Part shown: positions 1 through 366 of the stretch, piece after piece
Position numbering within the stretch: the first letter of the stretch is position 1
Layout: the number at the start of each line of letters is the position of its first letter
Assembly (NCBI RefSeq): GCF_003334305.1
Contig: NZ_QOWS01000082.1
Reading direction: 5' to 3' (one strand)
Origin: Escherichia coli
Lineage (GTDB): Bacteria; Pseudomonadota; Gammaproteobacteria; Enterobacterales; Enterobacteriaceae
Length of the DNA stretch: 366 nt
Notes under the pieces: generated by a model
What the model was told of the DNA's origin: nothing
Database searches by the model: none
What the model saw: the letters and a program-made list of their open reading frames with translations, nothing else
Made by a program: the position numbers and the translations under genes

Positions 1-62
1 AATTTGAGAGACTCACGAACAACTTTCGTTGTTCAGTGTTTCAATTTTCAGCTTGATCCAGA

Positions 63-75
63 TTTTTAAAGAGCA
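63..75 (-). promoter_or_regulatory. boxA-like antitermination motif of the rrn spacer (NusB/NusE binding-site type)
   Basis: Minus-strand sequence TGCTCTTTAAAAA (reverse complement of plus 63-75) differs at one position from the rrn leader boxA TGCTCTTTAACAA. It sits just downstream (in the transcript) of a hairpin, giving the boxB-then-boxA order typical of rrn and lambda nut antiterminators. Functional assignment rests on established knowledge of E. coli rrn operons. Confidence 0.7.
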
Positions 76-76
76 A

Positions 77-114
77 ATATCTCAAACATCACCCGAAGAT
101 GAGTTTTGAGATAT
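77..114 (-). promoter_or_regulatory. boxB-like RNA hairpin upstream of boxA in the spacer transcript
   Basis: Minus-strand RNA ATATCTCAAAACTCATC-UUCG-GGTGATGTTTGAGATAT folds into a 17-position stem capped by a UUCG tetraloop. It has one G-U wobble and a 2-nt internal mismatch (C-U, A-G), with 14 Watson-Crick pairs. Pairing was checked by hand. The boxB role is inferred from its position next to boxA. Confidence 0.5.
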
Positions 115-148
115 TAAGGCAGGTGACTTTCACTCACAAACCAGCAAG

Positions 149-224
149 TGGCGTCCCCTAGGGGATTCGAACCCCTGTTACCGCCGTGAAAGGGCGGTGT
201 CCTGGGCCTCTAGACGAAGGGGAC
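149..224 (-). tRNA. tRNA-Glu (anticodon UUC), complete 76 nt with encoded 3' CCA
   Basis: Reverse complement of 149-224 is GTCCCCTTCGTCTAGAGGCCCAGGACACCGCCCTTTCACGGCGGTAACAGGGGTTCGAATCCCCTAGGGGACGCCA. It has a 7-bp acceptor stem (GTCCCCT/AGGGGAC), anticodon loop CUUUCAC with anticodon UUC, T-arm GGTTCGAATCC and terminal CCA. This is identical to E. coli tRNA-Glu as I recall it. In E. coli the spacer copies are gltT/U/V/W; which copy this is cannot be determined from the window, so the symbol is left empty. Confidence 0.97.
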
Positions 225-309
225 GTATCAGTCTGCTTCGCAAGACGCCTTGCTTTTCACTTTCTATCAGACAATCTGTGTGAGCACTTCAAAGAACGCT
301 TCTTTAAGG
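225..309 (-). other. 16S-23S internal transcribed spacer, segment between the 16S 3' end and tRNA-Glu (85 nt)
   Basis: Lies between the mature 16S 3' end (310) and the tRNA 5' end (224) on the same strand. Minus-strand sequence begins CCTTAAAGAAGCGTTCTTTGAAGTGCTCACACAGATTGTCTGATAGAAAG..., which resembles enterobacterial spacer sequence as I recall it. Contains no ORF and is part of the pre-rRNA transcript. Confidence 0.9.
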
Positions 310-366
310 TAAGGAGGTGATCCAACCGCAGGTTCCCCTACGGTTACCTTGTTACGACTTCACCCC
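310..366 (-). rRNA. rrs: 16S ribosomal RNA, 3'-terminal 57 nt (partial; gene continues beyond the right edge of the window)
   Basis: Reverse complement of 310-366 reads GGGGTGAAGTCGTAACAAGGTAACCGTAGGGGAACCTGCGGTTGGATCACCTCCTTA, the canonical 3' end of bacterial 16S rRNA including the anti-Shine-Dalgarno CCUCC and terminal UUA. Match to the E. coli 16S terminus is from memory, not a database search. Confidence 0.96.

Follow-up and report, generated by a model that had tools for sequence, protein, structure and literature searches.

Seven ribosomal RNA operons with two spacer subtypes have been described (PMC2943607). A fragment of such an operon raises the question of which part of the operon it represents, how often that part recurs in a genome, and whether it can be assigned to one locus. 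The stretch of Escherichia coli DNA analysed here, called the window and 366 nt long in full, had been placed by an initial annotation in a multicopy rrn operon, and was expected to be repetitive at genome scale. We compared it with known RNA families, with the seven operons of strain MG1655 and with complete E. coli genomes.

Identity and layout of the window

The window is, with near certainty, the 16S-23S spacer region of a tRNA-Glu-type rrn operon of E. coli, encoded on the minus strand. Rfam gives three matches that pass their gathering thresholds; all share this strand and follow the order of the operon, an arrangement far beyond chance. Together with a tRNA-Glu identified by ARAGORN and 100% identity to E. 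coli chromosomes over the full 366 nt, with tRNA-Glu and 16S ribosomal RNA annotated beneath the match, these matches bear out the assignment to an rrn operon, and no evidence contradicts it. The feature is entirely known and holds no new biology.

Read along the minus strand, Rfam and ARAGORN give the order 16S 3′ end, 85-nt spacer, tRNA-Glu(UUC) and 148 nt of pre-23S spacer. The 3′-terminal 57 nt of 16S rRNA (366..310) match positions 1477-1533 of the Rfam SSU_rRNA_bacteria model with 56.9 bits against a gathering score of 50 (E 9e-16), and contain the anti-Shine-Dalgarno tail. They are followed by a 16S-tRNA spacer of 85 nt (309..225), the ‘short’ ITS-Glu variant, with the spacing seen in rrnC and rrnE of MG1655. 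The tRNA-Glu(UUC) gene (224..149) is 76 nt long and encodes its CCA end. It is recovered by ARAGORN and by the Rfam tRNA model (224..152, minus strand; 60.1 bits against a gathering score of 29, E 9e-13), and its sequence aligns with zero differences to MG1655 gltT, gltU, gltV and gltW. It is the sole tRNA in the window, in which ARAGORN and Rfam find no tRNA-Ile or tRNA-Ala.

The remainder (148..1), aligned to MG1655 rrnE, is the tRNA-proximal part of the spacer that leads from tRNA-Glu to 23S, and makes up 148 of its 193 nt. By the same alignment, 23S starts 46 nt beyond the left end of the window; in coordinates of the rrnE segment, window 1-366 aligns at 548..183 and rrlE starts at 594. 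In every inspected genome that carries the window or a near-copy, 23S likewise begins 46 nt beyond position 1 and is followed by 5S. About 85% of the window is thus spacer, the least uniform part of the operon. Identity reaches approximately 94% in records of Salmonella and 90% in records of Klebsiella. As the genomes searched were those of E. coli, the species label is to be taken as E. coli sensu lato.

Several further signals in the window were rejected. Rfam matches to SNORD24, ceN33, Plastid-psbI-rps4 and Tymo_tRNA-like have E-values of 0.2-0.6, fall far below their gathering scores and belong to irrelevant taxa; they are attributed to chance. Eight open reading frames of 20-44 aa span rRNA, tRNA and spacer and are treated in the same way. 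The plus strand reads AAGGAGGTGATCC at 311-323, which resembles a perfect Shine-Dalgarno site but is the complement of the 16S anti-Shine-Dalgarno tail; the 44-aa frame at 186-320 on that strand, which ends at AAGGAGGTGATCC, is spurious.

Comparison with the seven operons of MG1655

Seven rrn operons were located in MG1655, and they resemble the window to different degrees. Two are colinear with it over all 366 nt: rrnE (gltV) with one mismatch and rrnC (gltU) with two. Both share with the window the 85-nt 16S-tRNA spacer, an identical tRNA-Glu, boxA and the hairpin described below. Both differ from it by one base at position 289, with one further difference in rrnC, and both sit on the plus strand, unlike the window operon. 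They are the only operons of K-12 that match the window from end to end. Position 289 of the window is T on the plus strand (A in the RNA sense), a base that sets it apart from all four Glu-type operons of MG1655, which read C, C, T and C in the RNA sense.

The other two Glu-type operons of K-12, rrnB (gltT) and rrnG (gltW), carry the long ITS-Glu variant. Their gene order, tRNA-Glu, boxA and 16S end are as in the window, but their 16S-tRNA spacer measures 171 nt instead of 85 nt, and window positions 225-244 remain unaligned. The flanks are 98% identical to the window in rrnB and 93-96% identical in rrnG, whose hairpin sequence also differs from that of the window. The operons rrnA, rrnD and rrnH, which carry tRNA-Ile and tRNA-Ala, have only positions 1-77 and 257-366 in common with the window, at 96-100% identity. 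The first of these blocks is the boxA/pre-23S segment, and the second comprises the 16S end with the adjoining ~53 nt of spacer. Between them the spacer is unrelated, with two tRNA genes in place of tRNA-Glu and another boxB-like hairpin sequence.

This graded similarity is also apparent at the scale of sequencing reads. In MG1655, 25-mers from positions 296-366 and 29-77 recur in every one of the seven operons; for the tRNA-Glu part the count is four operons, and for 25-mers specific to the short spacer it is two. For the rrnE equivalent of the window, the fraction of reads unique to one operon rises from 16% at 50 nt to 48% at 150 nt and 89% at 250 nt.

Copy number across complete genomes

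Copy numbers were counted in 5,426 complete E. coli genomes from RefSeq. Any part of the window is found in every one of them, at 38,012 places (median 7, range 1-20), which upholds the expectation that the window is repetitive; the upper end of the range is a single genome with 20 places. The tRNA-Glu segment (100-224) occurs at 21,639 places in 5,394 genomes (median 4, range 1-12). The whole window as a single colinear alignment (E ≤ 1e-150) occurs at 17,554 places in 5,357 genomes (median 3, range 1-9). Allowing at most three mismatches (E ≤ 1e-185) retains 12,959 places in 4,601 genomes, or 85% of the total (median 3, range 1-7). The exact sequence (E ≤ 1e-190) is found at 1,439 places in 654 genomes (median 2, range 1-5), every one of these places lying on a chromosome.

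The E-value cut-offs were calibrated on pairs of bit score and E-value from the colinear full-length search, and the matches listed under them had only 100% identity in the exact set and only at least 99.2% in the set with up to three mismatches. An 81-nt junction query (195-275), tried as a means of counting the short variant, was dropped: its flanks of 30 nt and 31 nt each seed megablast alone, so that long-variant operons were partly counted and the query did not discriminate.

Most E. coli genomes therefore carry two to four near-identical full-length copies of the window. The description of several near-identical copies per genome stands in this form, yet it does not extend to all seven operons: the spacer is heterogeneous, and of the K-12 operons rrnE and rrnC alone match over the full length. 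The exact window sequence, with its allele at position 289, is a minority variant, since it is present in 654 of the 5,426 genomes.

Multiplicity also depends on stringency. Strain 120899 has seven places that match in part and four full-length copies at the 1e-150 cut-off, and only one copy with three mismatches or fewer, which is the exact one. The whole window is thus unique at high stringency in some genomes, and a strict self-BLAST could return a single match there even with every sub-segment repeated.

Locus and orientation

The sequence of the window does not fix its locus. In strain 120899, the exact copy lies between clpB and kgtP, the position of rrnG, and has the 85-nt 16S-tRNA spacer (segment 8225-8309). 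The same clpB-kgtP locus of K-12 holds a diverged spacer of 171 nt (MG1655 segment 6446-6616). WCHEC020032 carries three exact copies, and the one inspected lies between purH and yjaA, which is rrnE. An assignment of the window to any single locus was rejected on the basis of these exact copies at rrnG and rrnE. As strain 120899 has the short spacer at rrnG and K-12 the long one, the spacer type is not tied to the locus. Spacer variants move from one rrn locus to another, a distribution consistent with gene conversion. Gene conversion between E. coli rrn operons has been measured experimentally (PMC8022953).

The 16S end, tRNA-Glu and pre-23S spacer all lie on the minus strand, so transcription of the operon proceeds leftward, and the body of 16S lies beyond the right edge of the window and 23S beyond its left edge. 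The leftward orientation therefore does give the direction of the whole operon, as first proposed. In MG1655, oriC occupies 3,925,744-3,925,975. The counter-clockwise arm carries rrnG at 2.73 Mb (minus strand), and the clockwise arm carries rrnC, rrnB and rrnE at 3.94-4.21 Mb (plus strand). The exact copy at rrnE of WCHEC020032 is on the minus strand at 4.346-4.351 Mb; oriC of this strain lies approximately 290 kb further right, in the gap between mioC and mnmG at 4.639 Mb. With the position of the terminus taken from established knowledge, all four Glu-type operons of MG1655 and the exact copy of WCHEC020032 are co-directional with replication. The suggested check of orientation relative to oriC was thus positive in both genomes to which it was applied.

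Elements of the spacer

The spacer contains one arm of a predicted processing stem. The 3′ arm of the 16S stem lies at approximately 251-300 on the minus strand, with a core at 265-290, and is recognised by its complementarity to the leader upstream of 16S. BLAST finds window 251-288 as an inverted (reverse-complement) match to the 16S leader. The duplex of leader and spacer has a predicted energy of -74.9 kcal/mol, compared with -36.9 ± 4.5 kcal/mol in 300 shuffles. The pairing corresponds to the classic stem around 16S in the precursor, a known RNase III substrate. A corresponding 23S stem was sought as the best duplex of the tRNA-23S spacer with the 3′ flank of 23S. The strong helix adjoins 23S, outside the window, and its extension inward is patchy; no 23S processing stem is claimed within the window.

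Closer to 23S, a boxB-like hairpin (115..76, minus strand) is predicted to form 11 bp and 5 bp of stem with a UUCG loop, at -16 to -18 kcal/mol. It lies directly upstream of the spacer boxA, TGCTCTTTAAAAA (75..63, minus strand), which was located by exact motif search and differs by one base from the leader boxA, TGCTCTTTAACAA. The spacer boxA is present exactly in all seven MG1655 spacers, each time preceded by a hairpin of the same shape (stem, internal loop, stem). The sequences of these hairpins fall into three unrelated types: one in the short Glu operons and rrnB, one in rrnG and one in the Ile/Ala operons. The structure upstream of boxA is conserved, and its sequence is not. NusB/NusE binding and antitermination are established for the leader and spacer boxA of E. 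coli rrn operons. The hairpin and boxA of the window form the pattern expected of an rrn boxB-like/boxA antitermination signal, and may serve as one.

The last of the three Rfam matches, to StyR-44 (RF01830), covers the conserved pre-23S segment of the spacer at 71..1 on the minus strand. It spans model positions 1-71 of 107 with 81.5 bits against a gathering score of 54 (E 5.7e-13) and is cut at the edge of the window, so that two thirds of the model fit within it. A hairpin of the form GAACAAC-GAAA-GUUGUUC is predicted at 17-34, inside this match. StyR-44 (Salmonella Typhi npcRNA 44) was cloned from S. Typhi. Its authors assign it to the ribosomal operon, with seven copies, and place it upstream of 23S in all operons (PMC2943607), where it coincides in position with the corresponding segment of the window.

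Discussion

The elements of the window can be accounted for by a single ribosomal precursor. They would be transcribed from right to left within one long RNA, in which the spacer would supply one arm of the 16S processing stem, cut by RNase III, and tRNA-Glu would be freed by RNase P and 3′ trimming. The boxB-like hairpin and boxA would keep RNA polymerase resistant to termination as it enters 23S. Processing by RNase III and RNase P and Nus-factor antitermination at boxA are here carried over from established knowledge of such operons, and may be expected to apply to the window. The window is repeated in the genome because the seven rrn operons of E. coli are kept similar by gene conversion. 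Its multiplicity is graded, with the 16S end and the boxA/pre-23S segment in seven operons, tRNA-Glu in the four Glu-type operons and the whole window in the two to four operons with a short spacer.

In its own genome, the window might nevertheless be effectively single-copy, the private spacer variant of one operon that poses no mapping or assembly problem at its full length. We regard this as possible but doubtful. Strain 120899 offers a precedent, with its one exact copy and no other within three mismatches, as do 10 of 30 genomes (about a third) in a spread sample of those with an exact copy, where that copy is alone. Moreover, 89% of 250-mers and 48% of 150-mers in the MG1655 rrnE equivalent are unique among the seven operons. 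Against this, the 654 genomes with an exact copy have a median of two exact places and as many as five, and the sub-segments remain repeated (25-mers of MG1655 recur in seven operons or in four), so that short reads multi-map. A single full-length copy refines the main reading and is compatible with membership of a multicopy rrn family. There is practically no likelihood that the window comes from outside a working chromosomal operon, as a stray or non-chromosomal rrn fragment (on a plasmid or prophage, or as a pseudo-copy). Records labelled as plasmids do contribute 10 of the 38,012 places that match any part of the window, and 5 places among the copies with up to three mismatches. Several of the PLSDB ‘plasmid’ matches are records of 0.5-5 Mb, probably mislabelled chromosomes or chromids. 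However, the exact places are chromosomal without exception (1,439 of 1,439), and the two inspected exact copies each belong to a complete 16S-tRNA-23S-5S operon, one at the canonical rrnG locus and the other at that of rrnE. All functional elements of the window are also intact, as judged by Rfam, ARAGORN and the comparison of boxA and hairpin.

The match to StyR-44 raises a different alternative, in which positions 1-71 would represent an independent small RNA with a regulatory function of its own beyond that of a precursor spacer. This is very unlikely, even with StyR-44 listed by Rfam as a gene, a match of 81.5 bits in the window, and a northern signal and growth-phase regulation reported in both S. 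Typhi and E. coli (PMC2943607). The segment sits within the rrn transcript and contains boxA, and the authors who described StyR-44 themselves cannot exclude a metastable intermediate of rRNA processing (PMC2943607). An extension of this idea, that the StyR-44 segment or another spacer fragment acts in trans as a small RNA with a dosage set by the spacer variant at each rrn locus, is more speculative still and hardly credible at present. If it were true, the shuffling of short and long ITS-Glu between loci would have regulatory consequences and would not be neutral gene conversion.

The reading of the window as an ordinary rrn spacer has a bearing on assembly quality. Within the search of 5,426 complete E. 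coli genomes, 32 lack any match to the tRNA-Glu segment (100-224) and 69 lack a full-length colinear copy. Genomes without the tRNA-Glu segment probably reflect an assembly defect or an engineered strain, because the tRNA-Glu genes located in K-12 are all inside rrn operons. The weakest-ranked genome is that of E. coli IH5 (NZ_CP168269.1), a RefSeq ‘complete genome’ with a single matching place, which covers only window 296-366 (71 nt, the 16S end). This match lies at 6001-6071 within the segment 5495-9425 (segment coordinates), and the window search of the genome yielded no matching spacer and no match other than this 16S end. On either side of the lone 16S gene lie duplicated CDS fragments that carry the flag ‘partial in the middle of a contig’. 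The assembly resembles a concatenation of short-read contigs in which the rrn repeats have collapsed.

The value of the window is practical only. It marks a region prone to multi-mapping of short reads and to collapse in assemblies built from them, and its spacer is the part of the operon able to tell the rrn copies of E. coli apart.
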